Shown: in pieces, positions 31,519 through 45,195 of the stretch
Layout of the letters: every line of letters begins with the position of its first letter
Numbering within the stretch: the first letter of the stretch is position 1
Assembly: GCA_963675245.1 (NCBI GenBank)
Contig: OY775910.1
Location: 1,312,001 to 1,376,000, forward strand
Direction: 5' to 3'
DNA from: Acholeplasmataceae bacterium
GTDB taxonomy: Bacteria > Bacillota_I > Bacilli_A > Acholeplasmatales > Acholeplasmataceae
Length of the DNA: 64,000 bases
Translations under genes and position numbers: made by a program
The notes under the pieces: generated by a model
Seen by the model: only the letters and a program-made list of their open reading frames with translations
What the model was told of the DNA's origin: nothing
The model's database searches: none

Positions 31519-32040
31519 ATGATGTCTTTATATGATTTTGAAATCAAACGCAATGATGGCGCATTAACATCGCTTAATGACTATAAGGGAAAAGTGTTGC
31601 TTATTGTTAATACAGCAACACACTGTGGATTCACACCACAATATGAAGGATTGGAACATCTTTATCAAACATATCATGATCAAGGTTTTGAAGTTTTAGA
31701 TTTTCCAAGTAACCAATTCGCAAAACAAGCACCTGAATCTGACGAAGAAATTAATACGATATGTGAACTTACTTATCATACGACATTTCCAAGATTTGCT
31801 AAAATCGATGTGAATGGTAAACATGAAGATCCATTATTTTCATATTTAAAAAAACATAGTCCAGTCGAACTAAATGCACAATTAAAAAAAGAGAAAAAAC
31901 TATCAAAGTTATTGTTTGGAGAACGCATCAAATGGAATTTTACGAAGTTTTTAGTCAATCAACAAGGTGATGTTGTAGCAAGGTTTTCACCTCAAGTGAA
32001 ACCTGAAATGATTGATGCTTATATTAAAGATTTATTTTAA
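31519..32040 (+). CDS. Glutathione peroxidase family (Cys type)
   Basis: NTATHCGFTPQY, FPSNQF, WNFTKFL. Confidence 0.93.
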   Translation: MMSLYDFEIKRNDGALTSLNDYKGKVLLIVNTATHCGFTPQYEGLEHLYQTYHDQGFEVLDFPSNQFAKQAPESDEEINTICELTYHTTFPRFAKIDVNGKHEDPLFSYLKKHSPVELNAQLKKEKKLSKLLFGERIKWNFTKFLVNQQGDVVARFSPQVKPEMIDAYIKDLF

Positions 32041-32147
32041 GTGATAAGATAAAATGTTAATGAGACATTTTATCTTACTTTTTTGAATGTTTCATCTTAT
32101 GTGCATAGACATTTTTGATGATAGATGATAGAATATTATCGCGTGTC

Positions 32148-32225
32148 GCACCCGTAGCTCAGTTGGATTAGAGTGCAGCCCTCCGAAGGCTGAGGTCGCA
32201 TGTTCAAATCATGTCGGGTGCACCA
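32148..32225 (+). tRNA. tRNA-Arg(CCG)
   Basis: Anticodon arm CAGCC-CTCCGAA-GGCTG, CCA end. Confidence 0.95.
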
Positions 32226-32230
32226 TAGCA

Positions 32231-32321
32231 GGAGGAATACTCAAGCGGTTGAAGAGGCGGGCTTGGAAAGCTCGTAGGTCGGTAACACGGCGCAGGGGTT
32301 CAAATCCCCTTTCCTCCGCCA
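32231..32321 (+). tRNA. tRNA-Ser(GGA)
   Basis: Long variable arm, anticodon loop TTGGAAA, CCA end. Confidence 0.95.
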
Positions 32322-32329
32322 TTATGTAA

Positions 32330-32384
32330 CTTAAACATAACCTTATAAAGTTATGTTTTTTTATTTATAATGACATGTTATAAT
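32330..32384 (+). repeat. Cassette left-end site A with extended -10
   Basis: CTTAAACATAACC-TTATAAA-GTTATGTTT, T tract, TGTTATAAT. Confidence 0.75.
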
Positions 32385-32424
32385 GATTTTATAAGAAAAA
32401 TTTATATGGTTGTAAGGGGGATAT

Positions 32425-33717
32425 ATGACATTAAAACAATTTAAGCATGACATGATTAGAGGACTTGGAACATGTATCATTGAATTGGAAAATTCTAATG
32501 ATATAAGTCAATATAAATCTATTGTTCTTTTTGGATGTCTAAATACAATCAGCTACGAACATCAAATAGAAGGAACAAGAAGTCGATATATGTATGAACT
32601 TATTAAATATTTCAATGATGATTCGTATTTTGAAAATTCAATAATTTGTAAGTTCAAGAAAAATCTAAAAAGCGTAACTTTGATAGTCACACTTATTGAA
32701 AGACTAGCTTATTTTGCAGGCAATGGAAGTGATAAGGCTAAACAAATACTATATGAAAAATATGAATACTTGATTCACAAGAATAATATTACACACGATA
32801 ATGGTATAGTTTTAGATTGGCTATGTGTTAATTTATTGCAAGTTTACGGATATAAATTTTTGAAATATCATATTGAAACAGTAAAACAAATGAAAAAATA
32901 TATAGAGGAAGATCATTTAGGGTGGTTTTATTATAGTGCTATTCAAAGATACAAAGAAAAGGCTGGAAGTTTGTTGAAATCTATTCACCCACACTATGAC
33001 AATAAACCAGAGTTTACATTTGAGCAGAATGATTTTTCTTTTCAAAATATATTTAATCATTTAATGGATGAAAATTTCTTTATTAGATTCAATGCATTCT
33101 CATTTAGAGCAGATGAACTAGAAATAAAGAAAGCTATTAATTTTTTAATTGAAGATGGCAATGTAATAAAGAAAAAAAGATTATTAAGACTCTTATCAAG
33201 GAAACCTATTGACCACAACATTGGAAAAATAATAGAAATGATTGGTAAATATCCTGATAATTTGGATAAAATAATTTTGGAATATTGCAGTAATATTCCT
33301 AATAATAATTTTGTTAAAAGATTAGGCTATAGTTTACTTGAAGAACGTTCTACTCGTTCTTTTGGTTTGCAAATGATTATAAATAGCTATAAGTCGTCAG
33401 ACAAAGAGAGTGTTATATACTATACTAAAAAACTTAAAATTGATTATGATGATATAGAATATTGGTATGATACATTTTCTGCGTTGCTTAATCTTATTTA
33501 TTCAAAGAAAAAAGATGTACCTATAGAATTACTACAATACATATTTAATGAAACACTGAATTCATACCAAAGAGAATATGTAATTGATATTATGAAAAGG
33601 AAAAAAATACAAAACATGAATATCTTATATATTGCTAAATATGATTCAGATTATGATGTTGTAAAAAAAGCTAAGAAGTTAATTGAAAGAATTAAAAGTG
33701 AATCATCTGGTAAGTAA
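32425..33717 (+). CDS. Hypothetical protein, 430 aa
   Basis: Long ORF with AAGGGGG RBS; no recognised motif. Confidence 0.75.
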   Translation: MTLKQFKHDMIRGLGTCIIELENSNDISQYKSIVLFGCLNTISYEHQIEGTRSRYMYELIKYFNDDSYFENSIICKFKKNLKSVTLIVTLIERLAYFAGNGSDKAKQILYEKYEYLIHKNNITHDNGIVLDWLCVNLLQVYGYKFLKYHIETVKQMKKYIEEDHLGWFYYSAIQRYKEKAGSLLKSIHPHYDNKPEFTFEQNDFSFQNIFNHLMDENFFIRFNAFSFRADELEIKKAINFLIEDGNVIKKKRLLRLLSRKPIDHNIGKIIEMIGKYPDNLDKIILEYCSNIPNNNFVKRLGYSLLEERSTRSFGLQMIINSYKSSDKESVIYYTKKLKIDYDDIEYWYDTFSALLNLIYSKKKDVPIELLQYIFNETLNSYQREYVIDIMKRKKIQNMNILYIAKYDSDYDVVKKAKKLIERIKSESSGK

Positions 33718-33728
33718 CTTATAAAACT

Positions 33729-33823
33729 ATGTAACATTTTTGTTTTATTGAATGGCCTTATAAAAGGAGAAATTGCTTAAACATCTCACAAAGGTTATGT
33801 TTAAGCAGACCTTTCCCCCGCCA
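33729..33823 (+). repeat. Cassette right-end site B plus tRNA-Ser 3' direct repeat
   Basis: AAGGTTATGTTTAAG (33791-33805) is the exact reverse complement of 32330-32344; 33810-33823 matches tRNA 32308-32321 at 13/14. Confidence 0.75.
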
Positions 33824-34027
33824 CCTGGAGGAAACCGGATTTGAATTAATATTAGTTTTTTATGATTTATAATTTATATAATATAGTTGATTTATTCTAT
33901 TAATGATGATAACTTCATAGCGTAAAATTTTCTTTGATGATGTTTAGTTTTATTTGACAAGAATTAGTATAAGTGATAGAATGCATACAATAGGATTTAA
34001 TAATAATCTATACAATAAGGGGGATTT

Positions 34028-35146
34028 ATGAAAAAAACAATTTTATTATTATCTTTTTTCTTTTTATGTTTAATGCTTACATAAAATGTATATGCTAGTG
34101 ATGTATATTTAGTTAACGATAATGGGATAAGTGTTTCTTATTTGGATTACGATATGTTCAAGTTATTCGGCTTATCAGATGATGAAATTAAAATTTTAGA
34201 CTTGGAAACATATAATAAATATGCCAATAGAAATATTATAGAGCAATCATATAATAGGATTAATATTGAAACAACTTATACTGTTGACAATGGTGAAATT
34301 GTCTCAAGGGTATACAAAAGAATGAATGAGATAGATTTTAAAGAAAAAGTACAAGTTCACAAAAATAAAATAAATAAAGATAAAAATTATGACAAAGATG
34401 ATATTATACTTTCGTCTGAGGTTAGTTCTTATTCGATTACTCCAATATTCGAAATTGAACCTCCTGGAGGCGGAGGCAGTAGTTCAAACATCGTGCGATC
34501 AATTTATGATTCAACTGATTATATGACATTTGATTCTTACAATATCTATTATTCAGACGCTGGAAGCAGTGGAGAAGTCTATATCAGAATTGAAATAGAT
34601 TGGGTTACAGAACCTAGTCAAAGATTTACTGATATATTAACAATTGGTTTTGAAGATGTCATGCTAAAAGAAGAATTTATTGGAGGACAATCTTATCCAG
34701 ATATTCATTCTTCGTTTACTTATGATCATGATTTGCATATAACTTATTTATATGGTCCACCTACAGTTACTTCATCATCATATAATATAACTTTTGATGG
34801 AAGTGATTATTCAGAATATATATATGATCATAATGATGAACATTATGTTGGTGTTGAATATGAATTACCAAAGGACCAATTTAGTGTTATTGGATATATA
34901 TATGATTCTAAATATTCAAATTTTCATATGCAACTGGAAATGAATTTCACAAGAACTAATTCTGATACAACTGGATTAACTTTTTCTGAATTTTATGCTC
35001 ATCAATCAGGTAGTGGATCAATAGATTGGGGGAAAATTTCCTTGACTTCAACTCCAGCGTTCATTAATTATGAAACTTCTCTTTTTGTAAATGATCCTAA
35101 TTTTGATGATGCAGTCGGTGGATTTGCAATTTTTCAGAATATTTGA
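34028..35146 (+). pseudogene. Secreted protein gene with in-frame TAA in the signal peptide
   Basis: RBS and ATG 34028, MKKTILLLSFFFLCLMLT*NVYASD, in frame with ORF 34142-35146. Confidence 0.75.
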
Positions 35147-35161
35147 TAGCGGGTGCTAAAA

Positions 35162-35353
35162 ATGAGTAAAAGAAATATAAAATTAATCTTTATAACTTCT
35201 TCCATGTTATCATTTATCGCTATGATAACATTAACAATAGTAGCGCTTATCGATTGGCAAGCAGTCGATATTGTTTCTGGTCTGTTTGTTCATGTAACTA
35301 TAGTAGCTATATTTATTGTAAGCACAATTGGTTATATAATTATTGATAGATGA
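35162..35353 (+). CDS. Small two-TM membrane protein
   Basis: Two hydrophobic helices; follows the secreted-protein gene. Confidence 0.6.
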   Translation: MSKRNIKLIFITSSMLSFIAMITLTIVALIDWQAVDIVSGLFVHVTIVAIFIVSTIGYIIIDR

Positions 35354-35412
35354 TATAAATTGTGATTAATGCTATAGAATATTATTGTGAAGATTAAGTG
35401 AATTTCAATCAT

Positions 35413-35446
35413 AGTGCATCAACTTCTAAGTTGGTGCATTTTTTTT
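35413..35446 (+). terminator. Intrinsic terminator
   Basis: AGTGCATCAACT/AGTTGGTGCATT plus T tract. Confidence 0.7.
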
Positions 35447-35570
35447 GGATATTTTTTTGCATCATATAGGACATTGTAGTTAGTGTTTAGTAGAAAATTA
35501 TGTTTGATAGCAAATGATACCGATGAAAAAATACTAATAAAACAGAGGGGATTATTACATTTTTCCATGC

Positions 35571-35653
35571 AAAAAAAGCAACTCAGCCCGAAAAAAAGCA
35601 AAACTCCGTCGAACACGAACGATTTTAGAGTAAAACTCCGTAATGACAAGACA
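35571..35653 (-). repeat. Transposon-end-like repeat, copy 1
   Basis: Reads TGTCTTGTCATT... on the minus strand, with internal AAAACTCCGT repeats; 28 bp identical to copy 2. Confidence 0.65.
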
Positions 35654-35964
35654 CGATTATTATAGAAATCGCAAAAAAATTGCTTTTAACAGCTTAATAT
35701 AGCCATTAATAGCGTTTATATTTGCGATTTTTTTGTTAAATGATTATGAGTTTTTGATTATAATACATGGTTCCTTAAGAGATAATCTGCAAATAAAATA
35801 ATTCACTTTGTAAGTTACTACTTAAATTTAAATATTTAGAGATTGATATAGGATAACATAATTTAGAGTGAATTGACTTGGATTATGTATTATGCTATAA
35901 TCAACTCAATTGATAGAGAACTATTGAATCATATTCTCTAAATACGTTAAGGGGGAAACAAACA

Positions 35965-37185
35965 ATGAAATCCATAAAGCGCAGCATTTTGTTATTTGTT
36001 CTATTTTTTGGTCTTTTTGTTAGTGTATTTGCAATTAGTACTACGCCAGTTCAGGCAGAATCTAATGTGGTAAATTCGACAGAAGTAATTGTATCATATG
36101 AAGATGTATTTCAATCTTATTACGATACAGTAATCTTAGAGGCTAAATTAGCATTTAAAGATACAAATCTATCCTTTGAAGAGTTTTGTGATAAGTATTA
36201 TTATTTTGATATGGATATAAAAACATATACTGAAGCAGTTATAGATGCTTATGTATATGGTGAATATTCTGATATTCCAATTGCTAAATCATCTTCATCA
36301 TCATCTTCAGAAACAGCCGATTATATTTTAGATAATGGTATATTTGAACGTGAACCAATTTACAATTATTTTGATTACTCTGTAATTGAAATTGGGGATA
36401 TTATTTATGAAACGGATACTATATTTTTTGATTCTGGTCATATAGCGATGATAACAGATTATGCCTATGATAGTACATATGGATCCTACTATCGTACTGT
36501 AGAAGCAGTTGAACCAACTGTGTCAAATGGTTTTTTAGATGATACAAGAATGATTGATTATAGAGTTAAAATATTAAGAGTTGTTGGTGCAAGCACAGCA
36601 CAAATTAATGTAGTTAGATATTTTATGAATTATCAGATTGGTAAATCATATAGTTTAAATCCAATAAGGTTAAATACAAACATAAATTCTAGTGAGTGGT
36701 ATTGCTCTGAACTTGTATATGCAGCTTATAAATATGCTAATATTGATATTGGTGTTAAAAAGAACAGTAGTGGTAATGATGTGTATTTAGTATTAGGGTG
36801 TTTACCAGTTGATATTTACAACAGTTATAATACAAGTGAAGTTACAATACCAAGTTTTTTCCTTGAAATGGAGAATATGGGAAAATCAGGCAGTTATTGG
36901 TTAATCAAAATTACAAATTTATCAAGCTCGTATATTAGCTTTCAATATAACAGTAAAATGTGTTTTGCAAATGATGCCGAAAATTGGAGCGGACTAAACG
37001 ACTTAGTTACGAGATCTTTATATCCGAATACTTCTGTAACTGTAAGTATTCGCGAAAATTGGTTTGCTACAACAGTTGTAGCCGGTTGGCTTGATAGTGA
37101 AGACATGAGATTTATTACTTATGGCAACCAGCTTACCACTAGTGGAGGTATCGTTGTTACGAATGTTAAGAAAGATGAGAGTTAA
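35965..37185 (+). CDS. Secreted permuted NlpC/P60 (YiiX/YebB-like) papain-fold protein
   Basis: Signal peptide (VQA), GDII...GHIAM before WYCSELVYAAY (His before Cys). Confidence 0.72.
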   Translation: MKSIKRSILLFVLFFGLFVSVFAISTTPVQAESNVVNSTEVIVSYEDVFQSYYDTVILEAKLAFKDTNLSFEEFCDKYYYFDMDIKTYTEAVIDAYVYGEYSDIPIAKSSSSSSSETADYILDNGIFEREPIYNYFDYSVIEIGDIIYETDTIFFDSGHIAMITDYAYDSTYGSYYRTVEAVEPTVSNGFLDDTRMIDYRVKILRVVGASTAQINVVRYFMNYQIGKSYSLNPIRLNTNINSSEWYCSELVYAAYKYANIDIGVKKNSSGNDVYLVLGCLPVDIYNSYNTSEVTIPSFFLEMENMGKSGSYWLIKITNLSSSYISFQYNSKMCFANDAENWSGLNDLVTRSLYPNTSVTVSIRENWFATTVVAGWLDSEDMRFITYGNQLTTSGGIVVTNVKKDES

Positions 37186-37197
37186 AATGTCTCTTCT

Positions 37198-37983
37198 ATG
37201 TTTCTGGTGGTCATTGTGAAAGCACATAAATATCTAATATTTTCATTAAGTAGTTTTTTAATTACATCAATCTATTTATCACTTATATATGTTTTGGGTA
37301 CATTAAATTCATATTATGGAACATCATTTCCATTGTGGATATTTTTCGGTTTATCAGCATTTGAGATTATTGTATATTTAGCAATCAACAATAAAAAATG
37401 GTTATTGTTGAGCATTATTACAATTTTAAAAGGAACTAGTTATACATTAGTTATGTCTGTGTTTTTGTTTAGAGGAAGCAGTGTACTAGGTACACCTGAA
37501 CTGATATTTTTAATCATTGGTATACTATTAGTGTTGATTACAGTTTATATAGAATATTTTGGTATATCTCGGAAACTAAATTCTCGTTCTAATGAAATTA
37601 TTAGATCAGGTATATTCAAACAGAAAAGATTGTTGATTTTACATATTGTTTATTTAATCATTATCATGCTATCTATTATCAATGATAGTTTTACTTTTGA
37701 AGGTTTTGTCTTATCAGGTGGAATTTTTATTGGAGCTTTATTTATCAGCATAACTTTGACTCAGTATATTATTTCAAAAAACAAAGGGAAAAAATCATCA
37801 TTAACTATATTGACTATACTAAAATTTTTAACAATATTATTTGTTATGATCGGATTAATGATGTATGTCAATATTTCATTTTATCATCCATATACTGCTA
37901 TAGTTAACTTGTTATTACATTTGGTAGCTTTAGTGAATTTTAGTTTCGAAATGTACCTATTAAATCATCAACCACTAACATAA
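37198..37983 (+). CDS. Polytopic membrane protein
   Basis: About 8 hydrophobic segments; 12 bp after the preceding gene. Confidence 0.7.
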   Translation: MFLVVIVKAHKYLIFSLSSFLITSIYLSLIYVLGTLNSYYGTSFPLWIFFGLSAFEIIVYLAINNKKWLLLSIITILKGTSYTLVMSVFLFRGSSVLGTPELIFLIIGILLVLITVYIEYFGISRKLNSRSNEIIRSGIFKQKRLLILHIVYLIIIMLSIINDSFTFEGFVLSGGIFIGALFISITLTQYIISKNKGKKSSLTILTILKFLTILFVMIGLMMYVNISFYHPYTAIVNLLLHLVALVNFSFEMYLLNHQPLT

Positions 37984-38031
37984 ATATAGAATCAATAAAA
38001 TAATTTTGTATAGTTCAAAGAGCAAGATACT

Positions 38032-38105
38032 AAAAAAAAGCAAGTCCATCAGAAAAAAAGTAAAACTCCGTTGGAAATAGAGTAAAACTCCGTAATGACA
38101 AGACA
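38032..38105 (-). repeat. Transposon-end-like repeat, copy 2
   Basis: TAGAGTAAAACTCCGTAATGACAAGACA (38078-38105) identical to 35626-35653. Confidence 0.65.
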
Positions 38106-38409
38106 TTAAACGAGCATTGGTCTGATACGATAAGTATTGGACCTTTTTATTTTGAAGATAGAGGATTTTCCCCTATTTTCAAAATATAGATAGTCAAGTA
38201 TAAGTCAAAAATCTAACTATTTCTTCACATTCATTTAATTCTACATTTAATGGGTCACACAATTACTTAACAAGCTACACGATAGCCTAACCTTTTACAC
38301 GGTTATAACAAGTATACTTTTTGAGACTATATAGTGTATAATTATGATAATGATTGTTCAGTATGAAACCGTTACACGCATCAGTTTAAATAATTATGGG
38401 GAGGAGCCA

Positions 38410-39075
38410 ATGAGACGATTCAAATACCCATTTTCAAAGCACATTGACAAAAAGTTGCTTAGAAAAAGAATTGATTTACTAGATAATTCAGCACGAGAAA
38501 GATATATTGCCAATAGACGGTTTCGCCTAATTTTTGGAACCCTATTTTGGATTTTGTTCGTTTTTTTTCTGGGTATTATGATTGTTCTTGAGCAAAATAT
38601 AAAACCAGTGATTGGAAAGACCTTATATACGATTTTGGTTATTTTCGTCAGCTTAATTTTACCGGCATTGTTATTATTATTTCCATATCGAAAACTCGAG
38701 AAAAATTATCCACCTCAGTCTTTAGAAACATTTCCAAAAGATATTATTGCTATCATTAATATAAAGCTATTGAAATACTATAAAATTCCGGAAAACTATA
38801 TTGTTACCAAATGTTATGATTCTTCAAATCAGCTTCTTGTTGATAAGGATGTGTTGCTTTTTTTTCACATAGACAAATTAAGGATGGTTAATGATTTTAC
38901 ATCGACAATTAAGGACTTCGGTTGTTTTGAATTTGGACTGGATGAGATTAAAGTGTCTTATGGAAAAAAAGAGGATATCGTTACAACTGAGATAAATGCA
39001 GAGAAGTTTTATATTTCATTAGGAAAAAGAGCAAAATCATTTATTTCAAGTAGAGGAAGAAATGAGAATGTTTAG
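38410..39075 (+). CDS. Hypothetical two-TM protein
   Basis: GAGGAG RBS before ATG 38410; two TM helices. Confidence 0.7.
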   Translation: MRRFKYPFSKHIDKKLLRKRIDLLDNSARERYIANRRFRLIFGTLFWILFVFFLGIMIVLEQNIKPVIGKTLYTILVIFVSLILPALLLLFPYRKLEKNYPPQSLETFPKDIIAIINIKLLKYYKIPENYIVTKCYDSSNQLLVDKDVLLFFHIDKLRMVNDFTSTIKDFGCFEFGLDEIKVSYGKKEDIVTTEINAEKFYISLGKRAKSFISSRGRNENV

Positions 39076-39475
39076 GCTTTTTAAGAAAAAGAACAATGAA
39101 GAAGAACTTGCAAAAGCTCGAGAAAACCATAGAACACATTTTAGAGAAAGGCTACAGGTTAACAAAGATAAAAACACAACTTTTGAAGCGATGTACATTT
39201 TATTTAATGCTCTGGATATTGAAATTGTTGAATTAATAAAAAGGTACAACCTCTATATTGATTTTGATTTTGTTGATGAAGATCAATATTATGAGGTAAT
39301 GGTACAAAACATTAATGGTGGGAAAAAAGGTATGTATACTACTGTTGGTACAGAACAAGGTAAGAATATAATGACTCTTGATAGTATAGGAGATACGATA
39401 TCGACAGATGGATTATCTTCAGAAGATATTATGTCTAGAGTGATTGATGAAATAAAAACTTTTCACGGGAAATAA
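39062..39475 (+). CDS. Hypothetical protein
   Basis: ORF overlapping the upstream stop, AGAGG RBS. Confidence 0.65.
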   Translation: MRMFRLFKKKNNEEELAKARENHRTHFRERLQVNKDKNTTFEAMYILFNALDIEIVELIKRYNLYIDFDFVDEDQYYEVMVQNINGGKKGMYTTVGTEQGKNIMTLDSIGDTISTDGLSSEDIMSRVIDEIKTFHGK

Positions 39476-39500
39476 ATACCCATAGGAGGATACCTACAAC

Positions 39501-40226
39501 ATGATTTGGATTGATAAGAAAGCGTTTAAAGAAACCTAATCAATACTTAAGCAGAAAACTAGTATGAAGCCTATCTTCGCTGATCTAAAACGATTTATTG
39601 AAAATATGTATTCGATTATTGTTCTTAACATAGTTTATGAGAAAATTAAATTCAAATCCAATAAGAATTCATATATATATGGAAAGAAGTATAGGTTGAT
39701 CTGCTATGTATCCTCTTATACCGAAAGAGAAAAGATGCAGAATAGAGTTGATGTTCAATTAGATAACTTTCCAAATGCGCATAAAATGGTTAATGATAAA
39801 GATATACAGAATACAATTTTAGATGAATTTTTTCAATTGTCAAAGAAATACAATTTTAAAATAAATGTTAGGAAGGAAGACATTTGGGTTGATTATTTCT
39901 ATTGGTTTTCTACACAATACATGAGTCTTATTGTAAGTAAAGTACAAAAGAAACTAATAGAAGATGTGCTTTCCAAATACAAAATTAAAGCAAATATATG
40001 GGGTATACATACAGGAACTTTTGGCATTGTTATATTCTATGATACAGATTCCAGTAAACTTATTAGCCAGCAAAATGGTATTTCAGAAGAGATTAAAAAC
40101 GAGATTTATTTAGGAGTAAAGCAACTAGATGAATTTAATTTTTATAAAGAAGAGTACATAAGTTTTGACTCAAAAGAAAATCTAGATAAAAATTATCAAG
40201 GAAGTCTATATTACTATTTTAAATAG
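39501..40226 (+). pseudogene. Hypothetical gene with early in-frame TAA
   Basis: GGAGGA RBS, ATG 39501, MIWIDKKAFKET*SILKQKTS in frame with ORF 39564-40226. Confidence 0.65.
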
Positions 40227-40235
40227 TAAAATTCG

Positions 40236-40330
40236 CTATTTTGATACAAGAAATTACTACATGAAAACCACAAAAAATAAAATGACTAAGTTAAGCCATA
40301 ATTTAGGGGTGCTAATTTGTATCAAAATAG
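40236..40330. repeat. 95-bp element with perfect 14-bp inverted ends (MITE/IS remnant-like)
   Basis: CTATTTTGATACAA ... TTGTATCAAAATAG. Confidence 0.5.
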
Positions 40331-40351
40331 GTAATGCAACCCATACTGTCT

Positions 40352-40408
40352 CTTAAACATAACCTCAAAAAGTTATGTTTTTTTTTGTATATTTTATTAT
40401 GATATAAT
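40352..40408 (+). repeat. Cassette left-end site C with extended -10
   Basis: CTTAAACATAACCTCAAAAGTTATGTTT, T tract, TGATATAAT; homologous to site A. Confidence 0.75.
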
Positions 40409-40463
40409 AGAAATAAAGAATAACGATTAAAACTTTAATAGAATGCTTTGGGGGGGTATACTC

Positions 40464-40853
40464 ATGTCAATAATATTTAAGGATTATAATGAGATGAAGA
40501 AGCATAATACTGTTTTTATAGAAATTCAATATTGTAAACTTAGAGCTTCCAAAAGTATAAAAAAGAAAGTTGCTGTGAGAAATATGAAGTATCGTTTGTT
40601 AGATTCACTTTATATTCATAGTTCAGATATTGAGAAATTTTACGATGAATATGGAGAAATATTTGTTGATGGTACATACAATAATCAAAAGACTGGATTT
40701 ATTGATCCGTATGGAATTAACTATTTCCAGAAAAATCAAATAAATGATTTTATTAATCATATGTTGGAATCCAAACCTACTGATTACAAAATTATGATTG
40801 AATGGTTGAAACAAGCATTAGAATTTAATGGATTCTATATTCTGGGAATCTAA
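40464..40853 (+). CDS. Hypothetical protein
   Basis: G-rich RBS before ATG 40464. Confidence 0.7.
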   Translation: MSIIFKDYNEMKKHNTVFIEIQYCKLRASKSIKKKVAVRNMKYRLLDSLYIHSSDIEKFYDEYGEIFVDGTYNNQKTGFIDPYGINYFQKNQINDFINHMLESKPTDYKIMIEWLKQALEFNGFYILGI

Positions 40854-40946
40854 CTCAAAACTTCAAATTGTTATCATGAATGGTTCATCGAAATCCTTTG
40901 ATTGTTATGATTATTTCTGTTTGACAATACGGAGGTATATGTAAAA

Positions 40947-41258
40947 ATGACATATGAAGAATTTATTAAAGGAATAAATAATCGAACTAGAATCAAACAA
41001 ATAAACTTTTATATAAAGAATTATCACCATTATAAAAATTGTAGTATTGGTAGATATATAGATAACGTTAAAACAGTACAAAAAAAAATTAATGGAAGGA
41101 TAACCTGTATTCTAACTGAAGATCATTCAGAAGATGTATCTTTTTACGGTGATTTTAGTGAAAATTATAAATTGTTTGATTTAGGTTCAAAAGGAAAATA
41201 TACATTGAAAGACATTTGGAACAATATCGTAATTACCAAAATTGAATTCTTTAAATAG
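40947..41258 (+). CDS. Hypothetical protein
   Basis: GGAGGT RBS. Confidence 0.65.
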   Translation: MTYEEFIKGINNRTRIKQINFYIKNYHHYKNCSIGRYIDNVKTVQKKINGRITCILTEDHSEDVSFYGDFSENYKLFDLGSKGKYTLKDIWNNIVITKIEFFK

Positions 41259-41356
41259 TTAATTAGATGTTCTTTAAATTTCAATTTGCTGTTTTTAATT
41301 ATTTTTAGCTCATTAGAAAAAGATTATGTTAAATTAATCAGATTATATTTTCAATC

Positions 41357-41456
41357 ATGTAACATTTTTTGTTTCATGAATTGCCTTACAAAGGGGTAAA
41401 GTATCTAAATACCTCTCAAAGGTTATGTTTTTTTTATTAAATGAACATGATATAAT
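41357..41456 (+). repeat. Site D: right-end homolog fused to a left-end promoter segment
   Basis: 41357-41430 matches 33729-33802 at 58/74 ungapped (hand count), then resembles the segment after site A. Confidence 0.72.
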
Positions 41457-41484
41457 GAAGAAAATGATCTATAGGAGTACCATC

Positions 41485-41574
41485 TTGATTAATATTATAT
41501 ATGATGTTGATGTTACAAAATTAAAATATTTACTTCCAAAACAATATGATAATTTGAAAATATACTATTCATAG
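41485..41574 (+). pseudogene. Possible truncated cassette gene (29 codons)
   Basis: TGATATAAT, AGGAG RBS, TTG start, early TAG. Confidence 0.35.
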
Positions 41575-41631
41575 TATGTCATGTAAAATCCTTACTATAA
41601 GGACAAATATGACAAGATGGGATGGAGAAAA

Positions 41632-41832
41632 ATGAAAGATTTGATACTGTACATGGTAAATGAAGTCAAAGACATTCTGAAAATAACGCAGCGAACGCTG
41701 TACAATTACATTAAGAGTGGTGACTTAAAAGCCGTAAAAATCGGCAAATATTGGCGAGTAAAAAAATCCGACTTGGAAGAATTTATTGAATTTGGTACCA
41801 ACAAATCACACGACATTAACTCTTCAAAATAG
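41632..41832 (+). CDS. Excisionase-like (MerR-fold HTH_17) DNA-binding protein
   Basis: LY.V.EVKDILKITQRTLYNYIKSGDLKAVKIGKYWRV. Confidence 0.85.
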   Translation: MKDLILYMVNEVKDILKITQRTLYNYIKSGDLKAVKIGKYWRVKKSDLEEFIEFGTNKSHDINSSK

Positions 41833-41869
41833 AGTTTATTCGTCGCAAGGAATACAACAACAATATATT

Positions 41870-41894
41870 AAAACGCTCAAACGAGCGTTTTTTT
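41870..41894 (+). terminator. Intrinsic terminator
   Basis: AAACGCTC/GAGCGTTT plus T tract. Confidence 0.7.
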
Positions 41895-42213
41895 ATGTCT
41901 GAACTAATTCATGCTGCGAAAGAAACGGATATGATTAATGATAAAAGAATCAAAGAAAATCAAAAACATAATAAAAATAATCAACTTTAATTCGCTCAAT
42001 ACAACATTGTTAATGTGTATTTAATAAAAATAACCTATAAAATTTTGACATACTATCATGACAAGATGTATTGTCTTAGAAAATTTGAAATATGTTACAT
42101 TTTTTATGTGTTAAAAAGATATTGTTTACATCCGAATTACAATATAATTATGATTGAATATTATATGATTAGCGCTTATAATGAGGGTGATTAGAAAAGG
42201 CAAGGTGATGGAT

Positions 42214-43443
42214 ATGAATAAAAGAGAAATTGTAGATGGTATATATAGTTTTTCAATGAACATTGACAACATTATATTTGAAAATATGTGGGAACTACCT
42301 CATGGTGTATCGATGAATTCATACATTGTTAAAGGTAATGATGTGGCTATTATTGATGGTGTCATAGGTTGGGATGGTGTGCCTGAAACACTTTACAAAA
42401 ATTTAAAAGATTTTGATATTGAACTTGAAGACATTAAATATCTTGTTGTTAACCACGTTGAGATGGATCACACTGGATGGTTGACTAACTTCAAAAAAAT
42501 GAGTAAAGATTTTACCGTTGTCGCAACCAAAAAAGGAGAAGACATAATCAAATCATTTTATGGCGATGACATGAACATCTTAGTGGTCAAAGATGGAGAC
42601 ACATTAGATCTTGGTCATGGTAAGATATTAGCATTTTATGAAATTCCAAATGTACATTGGCCTGAGACGATGATGACTTATGAAATCAGTTCAAAAGCAT
42701 TATTTCCATGTGATTTATATGGTATTTTTGGGACAGTTAAAGGTCATCTTTATGATGATGAATTAACGGATGATGAAAAGAAGATATATGCTGAAGAAGG
42801 CTTAAGGTATTATACCAATGTTATGATGACCTATACACCAAGAGTTAAAAAGGCGATTGAAAAAACAAGGGCATTAGATATTAAGTTAATTCTTCCTGGT
42901 CATGGTATCTTGTATCGTGGTAATCCAGATCAAATCGTAGATGATTATGAACGATGGGGTGCTTATACAAATGGCCAAGGTGAGAATGAAGTCACGATTA
43001 TTTGGGGGTCAATGTATGGATCAACTGAAAAAATGGTCAATTATACGAAAGGACTACTAGAAAAAGAAGGCATTAAAGTAAAGATGGTCCAAATGCCTTA
43101 TGACACACAAAGTAATGTTTTAACAAAATCACTTAGTTCTGCAGCGATAATAATCGCTGCACCTACCTATGAATATAAAATGTTTCCACCTGTAGCTCAT
43201 GCACTTGATGAACTTGGTAGAAAAAGAATGATTGGAAAGAAGACGCTTTATTTTGGATCAGCTGGATGGATTGGTGGTGCAAAAAAGGATTTTGAATCTA
43301 TTCTTGAGACATCACGTATGAAATGGGATATTGTGGATGCTTTAGAGTTTATTGGTACAGCGGATGAAGATGCTTATCAAATGATCAATCATGCAGTTAA
43401 GAAATTAATTGAATCAATGAAGGAAAATATTTATCAAAGATAA
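42214..43443 (+). CDS. fprA: Flavodiiron protein (FprA/A-type flavoprotein)
   Basis: HVEMDH, HWPE, PGHG, flavodoxin SMYGST; start could be 42181-42214. Confidence 0.92.
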   Translation: MNKREIVDGIYSFSMNIDNIIFENMWELPHGVSMNSYIVKGNDVAIIDGVIGWDGVPETLYKNLKDFDIELEDIKYLVVNHVEMDHTGWLTNFKKMSKDFTVVATKKGEDIIKSFYGDDMNILVVKDGDTLDLGHGKILAFYEIPNVHWPETMMTYEISSKALFPCDLYGIFGTVKGHLYDDELTDDEKKIYAEEGLRYYTNVMMTYTPRVKKAIEKTRALDIKLILPGHGILYRGNPDQIVDDYERWGAYTNGQGENEVTIIWGSMYGSTEKMVNYTKGLLEKEGIKVKMVQMPYDTQSNVLTKSLSSAAIIIAAPTYEYKMFPPVAHALDELGRKRMIGKKTLYFGSAGWIGGAKKDFESILETSRMKWDIVDALEFIGTADEDAYQMINHAVKKLIESMKENIYQR

Positions 43444-43769
43444 TCTATTATTTATTTTTGCAACAACTATTAGAGATGTTAGTCAATAGCTAGCATCTTT
43501 TTTGATAAATAAAGAATTATTAACATTATTCATGCATAAGTGTGTGATTTATTGGGATTTAAAGCAAATTGATAAACGTACAATAGTTGTAGTAGTAAGA
43601 TAAAGACAAAGAAAGAAATTACTAACTTTTATCAATGAGGTGACTAACTATTAAAAGTCAAGTACTTTTAGTAGATAAACTGTAAAAACCTCCAATAGCC
43701 ATAATTTTTAGAGGTTAGCCATATAACTGGATGATTTTATGACTTAACCGCCACAGTTTAAGTAATCAA

Positions 43770-44930
43770 TTATTGTAGTTTAGAGGAATCAAAATCTTCC
43801 TGATGTGTTTCGAGATGATGAATGACTCTAATGAGTTTTTTTGAAAGATGAACCAGTGCGACACGATGATGTTTACCCTCTTGTTTCTTCTTGGTGTAGT
43901 AGTCGTAGAAGACGGGGTTATAGATCATAACCATCATTGAGATATTGATGAGTGTTGCTCTTAGGTACTTGCTGCCACGTTTAACCAGTTTACCTGTTGA
44001 AGACATGGTGCCAGACTGTCTGATGGTTGAATCCAGACCTGCATAGGATAACATTTCAGCGGGATTGGAGAAAAGTGAAATATCACCATATTCTGAAACG
44101 ATGACAGCTGCTGAAATGATTCCGATACCTTTAATGGTTTGAATCTTAGTTGGATATCGATGCATTAAAGAAATGATCTGTTTCTCAGTTTCTTCGATAT
44201 CTTGATTGAGTTTCTCAACATAAGAAATTGAAGTCTTAAGTTTGAATAGTTGATGATCTTGTGTCACACCAATGGTTGATTTTGCGAGTTCCTTCAGTTT
44301 AACAAACTTCGGATAATTGAATTTACCCATCGATCGTTTACGAAGCTTATCGAAGTGGTCATCAGTCATCCTTGCTATTTTATCCGGTGATGAAAAGCGC
44401 TTCAAGATGTATAAAGATGTATCACTATAGCCTTGTTCTTGCATAAAAGGTTTGAATTCAGGAAAGATGACATCTAAGACCTTGGTCATCATATTGTAGT
44501 GTTTCGTCCGAATTGAGATGAGTTTAAAACGTAACCTGGTCAGTGATTTTAAAGCACTTATATGATAAGATTGATGATGATAGGCTTTGTAGTCTACAGA
44601 TCTCATATAAGTTGAAATCATTTGTGCATCTTTCTTATCCGTCTTTGTTTTTCTCAGTGAATGGGCTTCTCCAAACTTCTTCACGAGAAAAGGATTAATC
44701 TCCATGAATGAATATCCATGGAGGATAAGAAATGACTTAAGGTTTTCTCCATAATGACCTGTGGCCTCTAAGCCTATTATCATTTCTTGCTTGACTAAAG
44801 AGTTAAAGTATCCTAATAGTTCTTTAAACCCAGACTGACTGTTCTCAAATGAGAACTGATGGCTAACTGTTTCGGTGGCGATGAAACAGTCATGCTTGTA
44901 CTTTGAAATATCGATGCCGATATAGATCAT
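43770..44930 (-). CDS. IS110 recombinase/transposase
   Basis: GIDISK, LEATGHY, KTDKKDA (DEDD RuvC), GIG, YAGL...QSG, KRG. Confidence 0.96.
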   Translation of the reverse strand: MIYIGIDISKYKHDCFIATETVSHQFSFENSQSGFKELLGYFNSLVKQEMIIGLEATGHYGENLKSFLILHGYSFMEINPFLVKKFGEAHSLRKTKTDKKDAQMISTYMRSVDYKAYHHQSYHISALKSLTRLRFKLISIRTKHYNMMTKVLDVIFPEFKPFMQEQGYSDTSLYILKRFSSPDKIARMTDDHFDKLRKRSMGKFNYPKFVKLKELAKSTIGVTQDHQLFKLKTSISYVEKLNQDIEETEKQIISLMHRYPTKIQTIKGIGIISAAVIVSEYGDISLFSNPAEMLSYAGLDSTIRQSGTMSSTGKLVKRGSKYLRATLINISMMVMIYNPVFYDYYTKKKQEGKHHRVALVHLSKKLIRVIHHLETHQEDFDSSKLQ

Positions 44931-44944
44931 AAGTACACCTCCAA

Positions 44945-45175
44945 GAATTAAATTTGTACGTGTGGTAAGTCCAGCAGCGTCTTTATCTCATAATCATGTA
45001 AAAAGCGTCTTCCGCTAACTAACTATTGCTGATTAAAATAAAGACCGTGGTAAGCGTCACCTCAAAATAGTCTAGGTTATAAAAATATGACACAGATCCA
45101 CAGTACATTATTAGTATATTAAATTAGAACGAAAGGAGTAAAGATTTAAAGACTTAAGTAACTAACTTAATACAC
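44945..45175 (-). ncRNA. Predicted IS110 bridge RNA (ends approximate)
   Basis: Nested stems with internal loops whose segments match the donor junction and target flanks. Confidence 0.8.
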
Positions 45176-45195
45176 TTTAAATCTTACATGACTGT

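Follow-up and report, generated by a model that had tools for sequence, protein, structure and literature searches.

In Dehalococcoides, genomic islands stand in tandem behind ssrA, a small structured-RNA gene, and each is closed by a short direct repeat of that gene's 3' end (PMC3146451). According to the parts of the report by McMurdie et al. (2011; PMC3146451) that deal with these islands, a pair of serine recombinases (DsiA/DsiB) is encoded on the reverse strand next to attL, and some islands lack the integration module and were proposed by the authors to be mobilizable in cis. These traits have counterparts around the element considered here, a 1,502-bp cassette (32322-33823) joined to the 3' CCA of a tRNA-Ser(GGA) gene in a 64,000-nt stretch of the genome of an Acholeplasmataceae bacterium (assembly GCA_963675245.1, contig OY775910.1, positions 1,312,001-1,376,000; hereafter the window, to which coordinates refer unless another genome or locus is named). 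Judged by anatomy, the Dehalococcoides ssrA islands are its closest match, followed by SCCmec and the Enterococcus cassette chromosome.

Elements of the staphylococcal cassette chromosome (SCC) type include ccr-less pseudo-SCC forms that are bounded by the same sites. The attachment sites of SCCmec and the Enterococcus cassette chromosome measure about 50 bp and are used by a pair of co-transcribed large serine recombinases (CcrAB); their conserved core is TATCATAA, in which the C before the A is essential, and, as at the present locus, imperfect inverted repeats and a directly repeated copy of the target gene's 3' end mark the borders of the cassette (PMC6222049, in its part on these sites). 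Further likenesses are found among cis-mobilizable elements (CIMEs), which, in the sections of Guedon et al. (2017; PMC5704250) on CIMEs and tandem accretion at tRNA genes, are integrase-less units with attL and attR at a tRNA 3' end that stack with other elements. The present cassette likewise contains no integration or transfer genes. Integron cassettes are small, recombinase-less and mostly one-gene units, stacked head to tail, each with its own hairpin recombination site, and the units described below resemble them in all of these respects. The tycheposon islands of Prochlorococcus are also anchored at tRNA genes, with successive integrations pushing older ones inwards and leaving partial tRNAs at the borders; in the portion of the preprint by Hackl et al. 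that lists their integrases, 910 of 937 are tyrosine recombinases, with a large serine recombinase serving a minority of the elements (bioRxiv 10.1101/2020.12.28.424599).

The cassette is very probably a real, site-specific element that is mobilised in trans. A sequence-only reading of the window had proposed that a site-specific recombinase acting in trans mobilises a minimal cassette without an integrase, and this proposal is now supported by an empty site in a relative, by other cargos between the same ends, and by a 445-bp member of the same family. Three tRNA genes were detected in the window by ARAGORN (tRNA-Pro, tRNA-Arg and tRNA-Ser(GGA)), of which tRNA-Ser(GGA), at 32231-32321 on the plus strand, is intact (Rfam tRNA, 52 bits). 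Its last 14 nt (32308-32321, +) constitute the first copy of a direct repeat and the left half of the attachment site (attL side). Directly 3' of the CCA, as placed by the junction table and the empty site, the cassette starts with an 8-nt leader, TTATGTAA (32322-32329, +), which in other members of the family varies in sequence and measures 7-9 nt. The left inverted-repeat arm, CTTAAACATAACCTT (32330-32344, +), thus lies 8 nt from the CCA and forms the 5' half of an intrinsic-terminator-like hairpin followed by a T-run (32333-32362, +; stem 32333-32341/32350-32358). The predicted fold has a 9-bp stem (-7.1 kcal/mol, z -2.4) and recurs in a second cassette of this genome and in relatives; such a hairpin would terminate the tRNA transcript. 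Behind it, a candidate extended -10 promoter of the cargo gene, TGTTATAAT (32376-32384, +), was recognised from sequence and alignment, with TGnTATAAT kept at the equivalent position in other family members.

The cargo itself is one open reading frame (ORF) of 430 aa (32425-33717, +), preceded by the Shine-Dalgarno sequence AAGGGGG (32414-32420); in agreement with the sequence-only reading, the ORF list and the sequence place only this gene and the promoter between the repeats. No recombinase is present in the cassette, as its lone ORF has no match in Pfam, PHROGs or PADLOC. The right-end module, R (33729-33809, +), which was delimited by alignment, family searches and folding, contains a 12-bp hairpin (33773-33784/33797-33808) with the right arm (33791-33805), the exact reverse complement of CTTAAACATAACCTT at 15/15 positions, in its 3' half. 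Four nucleotides after this arm, a tRNA-like 14-mer, CCTTTCCCCCGCCA (33810-33823, +), matches 32308-32321 at 13 of 14 positions and supplies the last bases of the element. Both hairpins share a 5' arm (CTTAAACA...) on the same strand, and neither inverted-repeat arm reaches the tip of the cassette, the distances being 8 nt and 18 nt. In a hypothetical circle, 26 nt would separate the repeats (4+14+8), so the 26-bp core calculated earlier is arithmetically correct.

The two repeats that had drawn attention to the locus are exact as described and non-random. When up to two mismatches are allowed, the window contains five matches to the 15-mer, where 0.39 would be expected (a count of five was attained in 1 of 100 shuffles), and two to the 14-mer, where 0.11 would be expected (a count of two was attained in 0 of 100 shuffles). 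One extra match of the 15-mer, with a single mismatch at 40352, is the left end of the second cassette. Chance repeats or plain terminators without mobility might be suspected in AT-rich DNA that is rich in short repeats, all the more as the left arm lies within a terminator hairpin; against this stand the shuffle controls, the exact empty site, and the retention of both ends across genera around different cargo. This explanation, refuted by the empty site, the junction table and the occurrence of the 445-bp cassette at different sites, retains a practically negligible probability.

Empty sites were sought in 40 relatives, whose genomes are designated by G-numbers (G000 being the genome of the window and G002 that of a sister species). 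The precise empty tRNA site that the cassette hypothesis called for was found in G002, where window 31588-32321 corresponds to 905522-906258 and window 33810-35400 to 903944-905535. These two matches overlap by 14 bp, with identities of 70% for the upstream flank and 92% for the downstream flank. In G002, the tRNA-Ser (...CCTTTCCTCCGCCA) joins directly to CCTGGAGGAAACCGGATTTGAATTAATATTAG, which equals the window from 33824 onward; the tRNA end reads ...GGGGTTCAAATCCCCTTTCCTCCGCCA and is followed by CCTGGAGGAAACCGGATTTGAATTAATATTAG at once. What is present here and absent there amounts to 1,488 bp plus one 14-mer. Since the tRNA end of G002 abuts the sequence that follows 33823, the cassette is an insertion with base-exact borders.

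The native flank beside tRNA-Ser opens with CCTGGAGG, and its first 22 nt, CCTGGAGGAAACCGGATTTGAA (33824-33845, +), lie directly 3' of the CCA in G002 and represent the right half of the chromosomal attachment site. Within them, 33827-33845 repeats the 3' part of the tRNA in inverted orientation (17/19); G002 has this stretch at its empty site too, which shows it to be native tRNA-flanking sequence. With 17 of 24 positions in symmetry, a score that 0.065% of 20,000 genomic CA sites attain, the chromosomal site is near-palindromic about the final CA of the tRNA. Other inserts fill the same site in G007 (8.1 kb) and G003 (9.5 kb), both starting right after the CCA and ending in a right-end module termed X, followed by CCTGGA.GAAA.... 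A sequencing run of one relative showed a different sequence 3' of its tRNA-Ser.

The ends of the cassette define a family, here called L/R, with the end arms CTTAAACAYAACC / GGTTATGTTTAAG, and other genes are found between such ends elsewhere in this genome as well as in further species and genera. Each end occurs twice in this genome, the second pair lying 8 kb downstream in a cassette at 40344-41432 (+), identified by genome search and alignment, with its left end at 40344-40390, its right module at 41357-41432, and ORFs at 40443-40853 and 40947-41258. This second cassette is inserted after a right end of another type, Y, reading ...GGTAATGCAACCCA (40330-40343), and its right module is degenerate, with a T-run instead of AAG and the 14-mer. 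At E <= 1e-6, the right end, taken as 100 nt, was detected in 8 of the 172 species genomes available for the family (a tally of 20 genomes at E <= 0.01 includes 12 with only 17-36-nt matches and was discounted), and the arm CTTAAACAYAACCT is restricted to cassette ends, with 14 matches in 8 of the 172. The pattern of arm plus 14-mer was found in 6 genome records, all titled Acholeplasmataceae, Mariniplasma or Bacillota metagenome-assembled genome (MAG), and at 8 metagenome loci, with 0 matches in viral contigs.

About ten other cargos lie between the same ends (45 nt on the left, 32-95 nt on the right), of which only some 32 nt of the right end, (T)AGGTTATGTTTAAGnnnnCCTTTCCTCCGCCA, are common to every member. 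The cargos include a set of ribbon-helix-helix (RHH) antitoxin, ParE and ASCH genes at the same tRNA-Ser in G001, ABC ATPases and ASCH in G006, DUF3800 with beta-flower at locus L065, and three unknowns at locus L067. The smallest unit is the 445-bp mini-cassette, whose cargo is a 75-aa zinc-ribbon ORF. Its copies in two species, behind an X end in G132 and behind a Y end in G114, are 98.7% identical and share 91% identity with a third copy, L066; their 400-nt flanks align at 0.61-0.68, the background of the scoring and the level of unrelated AT-rich DNA. Near-identical cassettes at unrelated sites imply that this recombinase-less unit moved, or was delivered, with identical borders, and with such a unit at different sites in two species the motifs are more than terminators.

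These observations also bear on the idea that the cassette is an immobile relic of a larger island or prophage that decayed in place, in other words a CIME formed by deletion, with its ends spread by homologous recombination. The degenerate right end of the second cassette, an orphan excisionase-like gene (41617-41832), and a recombinase-gene remnant beside an X fragment in G007 would suit such a history, and CIMEs are defined in the relevant part of PMC5704250 as decay products of integrative and conjugative or integrative and mobilizable elements (ICEs, IMEs) that move in cis with a neighbour. However, the base-exact borders of the 445-bp cassette at unrelated sites are difficult to reconcile with decay; this member moved alone, and no parent element was seen. 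In addition, the design of terminator, promoter, gene and site, repeated with about ten cargos in the same ends, is too regular for repeated random deletion, and no large parent with L/R ends was found in the 172 genomes. The relic explanation is therefore considered improbable.

A junction table was compiled from 13 left junctions, of which 11 are distinct (two pairs represent the same contig in two collections). All 11 read ...CA, then a leader of 7-9 nt, then CTTAAACAYAACC; the flank to the left is tRNA-Ser in two cases, an X end (...GTAATGACAAGACA) in six, and a Y end (...GGTMATRCAACCCA or a variant) in three. On the other side, all 15 right junctions tabulated end in the tRNA-like 14-mer (...CCA), those at non-tRNA sites included. 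The 14-mer is thus borne by the element and is not a target duplication, so that the tRNA 3' direct repeat is indeed present at the boundary, as first described, although it has to be understood as the element's own right end. At the six X junctions, the last four bases before the cassette are the GACA of X and not the GCCA of the element, position 12 of the 14-mer register being A. Retention of GACA places strand exchange at or after the final CA, and we infer a crossover at or just after the terminal CA of the 14-mer.

One detail of the sequence-only reading, namely the likeness of its TTATGT arms to Xer sites, is not supported. The TTATGT leader differs in all other members (TACTGTCT, TCGGATTT, TTCTGTTT and others; 10 other left junctions), the target is a tRNA end rather than dif, and the recombinases linked to the arrays of relatives are of the large serine type.

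Exchange 3' of a CA next to hairpins could also be produced by single-strand HUH transposition of the IS200/IS605 kind, with the subterminal hairpins guiding cleavage. The hairpins do share their 5' arm on the same strand, with the cuts placed 8 nt before the left hairpin and 15 nt past the right one; with no target duplication, the topology is like that of IS608. By contrast, the targets are long specific modules (tRNA end, X, Y) and not a tetranucleotide, and the Y1 transposase domain (PF01797) has no match in G000, G006, G132 or G114. This route is accordingly rated very improbable. IS200/IS605 elements were also rejected as mobilisers; the IS200 copies of G001 and G002 have unrelated ends and other insertion sites.

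Which enzyme performs the exchange was approached through a survey of recombinases. Pfam scans of metagenome loci revealed large serine recombinases beside arrays, and a further left end, L'' (GGTTGATTATACCAAG... / GGTTGATTATACCAAGTTGC...), connects such genes with the same landing sites. L'' stands directly after the CCA of tRNA-Ser in G009, G007 and G006, of tRNA-Gly(GCC) in G007, and of tRNA-Cys in G089; it also directly follows X ends (locus L064, G108, and this genome at 76.6 kb) and an R-type 14-mer (G006). At five loci it is followed by a reverse-strand pair of large serine recombinases (550 and 566 aa), and in G005 an L'' variant has a recombinase gene 0.4 kb behind its tRNA-Ser. Genes for a cI/cro-like pair, an antirepressor, a portal and an HK97-type capsid mark the L''/recombinase elements as tailed prophages. 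Prophages of this kind at tRNA CCA ends are L070 (G007:C1 892887-943283, tRNA-Gly(GCC)), L071 (G089:C2 from 14745, tRNA-Cys(GCA)) and L072 (G009:C11, tRNA-Ser(GGA)); the block in G007 extends over 50 kb from L'' (892887) to an X end (943283), and its flanking genes are 3.2 kb apart in the present genome. Recombinase modules at the three different tRNAs share 91-95% DNA identity, which suggests one integrase system with several tRNA targets. A second prophage in G007 encodes a pair of 436 and 529 aa, with Y-variant ends about 3 kb behind the pair and then a left end of yet another type, L'. The large serine recombinases score 130-149 bits against the CcrB model, whose cut-off is 900.

Given that X and Y are the right ends of serine-recombinase prophages, which also use the tRNA-Ser position, large serine recombinases are the likeliest mobilisers of the cassette, and the near-palindromic chromosomal site fits the need of a dimeric recombinase. 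We regard the chance that the mobilising enzyme belongs to this class as evenly balanced.

Several observations weigh against a serine enzyme or leave it without direct linkage. No match to the serine recombinase families PF00239 or PF07508 occurs in this genome, and none in G001 either. No L/R element with a recombinase was found in the 172 family genomes, the 6 genome records or the 8 metagenome loci, an absence that is not proof; for this reason the enzyme is assigned by shared junctions rather than by linkage. Large serine recombinases are present in 6 of 9 carriers and in 38 of 56 genomes of the same three genera, which amounts to no enrichment, and the related prophages also encode a 306-aa tyrosine recombinase. 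The axis of the 15-bp inverted repeat lies 4 nt to the left of the CA (best symmetry shift -8), unlike a textbook serine-integrase attP, and no significant palindrome was detected at the X|L'' junction (11-12 of 24 positions, reached by 14-31% of background sites). In this palindrome test, the inferred circle junction of the cassette centred on CA was not significant either, only the chromosomal site being so, and the idea of a palindromic X|L'' junction was dropped. Finally, three runs of one sample were represented by assembled contigs, a type of data in which rare forms tend to be lost; over the whole stretch these contigs show the cassette integrated, and no joint of a circle or of an empty site was seen in them.

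Part of this evidence would suit the same cassette being moved in trans by a tyrosine recombinase, either an island or phage integrase or one of the four resident Xer-like enzymes other than XerC and XerD, with the 14-mer as core. A tRNA 3'-end direct repeat is the classic signature of tyrosine integrases, and this genome, devoid of serine recombinases, has six tyrosine recombinases: XerC, XerD, two Xer-like proteins of about 290 aa, and one adjacent pair. Besides the 306-aa enzyme of the related prophages, a 293-aa tyrosine recombinase belongs to a 4.8-kb element at tRNA-Gln(TTG) (G000:C1 990416-995299). Nevertheless, all six lie more than 170 kb from the array, and PF00589 has no match within 45 kb of the arrays in G001, G002 and G006. 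All six measure 290-326 aa, with no classical integrase bearing an arm-binding domain among them. The tyrosine recombinase of the prophages has no close counterpart among the resident Xer-like enzymes. The X and Y insertion sites share only CA, plus G at -4, with the 14-mer, too little for an overlap of 6-8 bp unless homology is dispensable. The tRNA-Gln element is bounded by a 48-nt tRNA repeat that extends from the anticodon loop to the CCA, a different junction class, and is a separate, classical integrase island. Mobilisation by a tyrosine recombinase is thus rather unlikely, if by no means fanciful.

The following course can be proposed. The cassette was spliced onto the CCA of tRNA-Ser(GGA) by site-specific recombination; in the circular form, the right end (arm plus 14-mer) joined to the left end (leader plus arm) would constitute the attachment site of the element. 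This joined site would recombine with any accepted end in ...CA, whether of tRNA-Ser or of the X, Y or R-14mer ends of elements already stacked, and repeated stacking would give rise to the variable array that extends from tRNA-Ser to the flavodiiron gene at 42181. For the enzyme, the likeliest candidates are the large serine recombinases that temperate phages of this bacterial family encode in pairs, with a putative 2-bp crossover at CA. The complete statement, a non-autonomous tRNA-Ser cassette moved in trans by phage large serine recombinases, is in our estimation about equally apt to prove right or wrong.

A more far-reaching reading is offered only tentatively, and we consider it somewhat doubtful, namely that the Acholeplasmataceae possess a dedicated capture system that is integron-like without being an integron. 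Promoter-bearing mini-cassettes with at least three interchangeable end families (L/R-14mer, L'/Y and L''/X) would be threaded onto tRNA CCA ends by phage-borne paired serine recombinases; each right end, by mimicking the tRNA 3' end, would regenerate the landing site for the next cassette; and the left terminator hairpin would double as a recombination arm. Pairing with the right end in the circle could turn termination off. In all three end families, the sequence of the left terminator stem was observed to recur in the right end (e.g., 32330-32358 versus 33793-33805, and locus L064 6067-6260 versus X). Either after excision as a circle or in a transcript that reads through, base pairing between this right-end copy and the left arm could rival the terminator hairpin.

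Set against the described systems, the cassette is not a new kind of element; it is an unusually compact variant. Within what PMC3146451 reports, the Dehalococcoides islands use the T-loop of ssrA, whereas the targets here are the CCA ends of several tRNAs and the right ends of earlier elements; the present cassettes, 0.44-6 kb long and often with one gene, are much shorter, and their left end has a fixed terminator-promoter design, while their presumed recombinase carriers are tailed prophages, with no recombinase-bearing L/R member known and recombinases that are only distant relatives. SCC elements, as far as PMC6222049 covers them, target the 3' end of rlmH instead of a tRNA-Ser CCA end and measure 20-60 kb; there is no similarity between the site sequences, and L/R, L'/Y and L''/X ends interleave here in one array. 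Recombinase pairs occur at the same junction types in relatives, with none in this genome and no enrichment among carriers. Tycheposons, in the preprint's description, carry their own integrase and often replication genes, none of which is found in the present units. In contrast to integrons, there is no IntI, the junction is CA|N rather than G|TT, each cassette has its own promoter and terminator, and the anchor is a tRNA end. Integron-integrase models score all six tyrosine recombinases of this genome at 32-158 bits against cut-offs of 265 and 435, and none of the six is near the array. Non-autonomous IS200/IS605 elements (palindrome-associated transposable elements, PATEs) agree in hairpins and CA rule and differ from the present case in its long specific targets. 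Integrative mobile elements exploiting Xer (IMEX) differ in their target, dif as opposed to a tRNA end, the dif site of this genome itself not having been located, and DDE transposons or miniature inverted-repeat transposable elements (MITEs) differ because the arms here are subterminal and the repeat is element-borne rather than a target-site duplication.

Distinctive features are the tiny uniform units of terminator, promoter, gene and site, the element-borne mimic of a tRNA end, the three interleaved end families that land on the right ends of earlier elements, and the apparent use of several tRNAs by near-identical phage recombinase modules. A catalogue-level search of the literature on Acholeplasma serine recombinases and on prophage integrases at tRNAs found no account of such cassettes. 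Small-genome, Mollicute-like bacteria are usually thought to change mainly by gene loss, and yet the stack of small self-expressed genes at the tRNA-Ser site differs among all the species examined and includes toxin-antitoxin sets, restriction-modification genes, immunity-like proteins and unknowns. With units down to 445 bp and base-exact borders, the family offers a tractable natural system for asking how recombinase-less cassettes parasitise phage integrases, how recombinase modules of 91-95% identity target three different tRNA genes, and whether tRNA 3'-end mimicry suffices as a landing site. Compact attachment sites with a CA crossover, together with their enzymes, are also of interest for DNA insertion by serine integrases; should the enzyme prove to be something else, the family would be more novel, not less.

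With respect to the cargo, the 430-aa protein has 13 homologues of 33-60% identity, all unnamed and one of them from a Haloplasmataceae MAG, and no match in Pfam, PADLOC or PHROGs. A homologous gene in G001 (43% identity) lies outside any recognisable cassette. The AlphaFold2 (AF2) prediction is an all-alpha solenoid (predicted local distance difference test, pLDDT, 87; predicted template-modelling score, pTM, 0.80), for which Foldseek retrieved only generic armadillo/importin-alpha repeats from the Protein Data Bank (PDB) at template-modelling (TM) scores of 0.2-0.3. An Atlas search returned unnamed clusters and one HEAT_2 lead, in agreement with the solenoid model, and the protein is therefore predicted to be an all-alpha repeat protein of the ARM/HEAT-like type. 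From the nature of the neighbouring genes, a binding or immunity-type role might be guessed.

The stack between tRNA-Ser and the flavodiiron gene (42181-43443) consists of five units: the L/R cassette at 32322-33823, two units ending in X (33824-35653 and 35654-38105), one with an L' left end and a Y right end (38106-40343), and the second L/R cassette (40344-41432). All left ends in the array comprise a short leader, a terminator hairpin and a T-run, to which the L type adds TGnTATAAT; X and Y are modules of about 60-100 nt with 3-4 direct iterons and a terminal ...CA. The first X module (35560-35653, +), with iterons AAAACTCCGT and the end GTAATGACAAGACA, closes the cassette at 33824-35653, and a second copy lies at 38025-38105; homology to G002 stops exactly at the X end at 35653 and resumes at the flavodiiron gene. 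The last X iteron resembles a tRNA T-arm at the same distance from CA (7 of 10 positions, by eye). Rfam gave no match for the L, R, X and Y modules, either across the whole window at the gathering score or for 32000-42000 at E <= 1. Among the 11 proteins of the array, none matches PADLOC or PHROGs except a helix-turn-helix (HTH) gene and one weak match. An orphan 71-aa HTH_17 excisionase-like gene is situated at the far end (41617-41832), with no integrase beside it, and X-end-like ATGACAAGA motifs occur at about 41606, upstream of this gene, and at about 42057, downstream.

Elsewhere in the genome, L'/Y units (hairpin ...AGGTCTGATAC; Y with GGGGTG iterons) are located at tRNA-Gly(TCC) and tRNA-Leu(GAG) (G000:C1 1089617-1091373 and 1254700-1256752), in addition to the one behind an X end in the window (38106-40343), which makes several tRNA genes of this genome landing sites. 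Further X modules, at 1598934 and 1599358 (both -) and at 76636-76710 (-), close unrelated cargos. The left region of L'' contains two copies of GAGGGGATTTGAACTT (locus L064 6200-6290; L073rc 2820-2900; L074rc 1150-1240), which resemble inverted tRNA T-arm/acceptor fragments and may serve as extra binding sites or decoys. At G000:C1 1131524-1134732, a 392-aa ORF without a family stands behind the adjacent genes for Xer-like tyrosine recombinases (323 and 318 aa); the three may form a recombinase trio or an inversion system.

Right after the flavodiiron gene lies an IS110-family element with a DEDD transposase (about 43636-45191; gene 43770-44930, -). Four copies with 100% identity are present in the genome, so that the element was recently active; its ends are unrelated to those of the cassettes, and it was set aside as a candidate mobiliser. 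In G003:C1, the region of about 624000-705000 (of which locus L077 covers 686000-705000) comprises 11 X modules, four L'' ends and a serine recombinase pair over about 80 kb, which suggests a very long stack of cassettes and prophages downstream of its tRNA-Ser.

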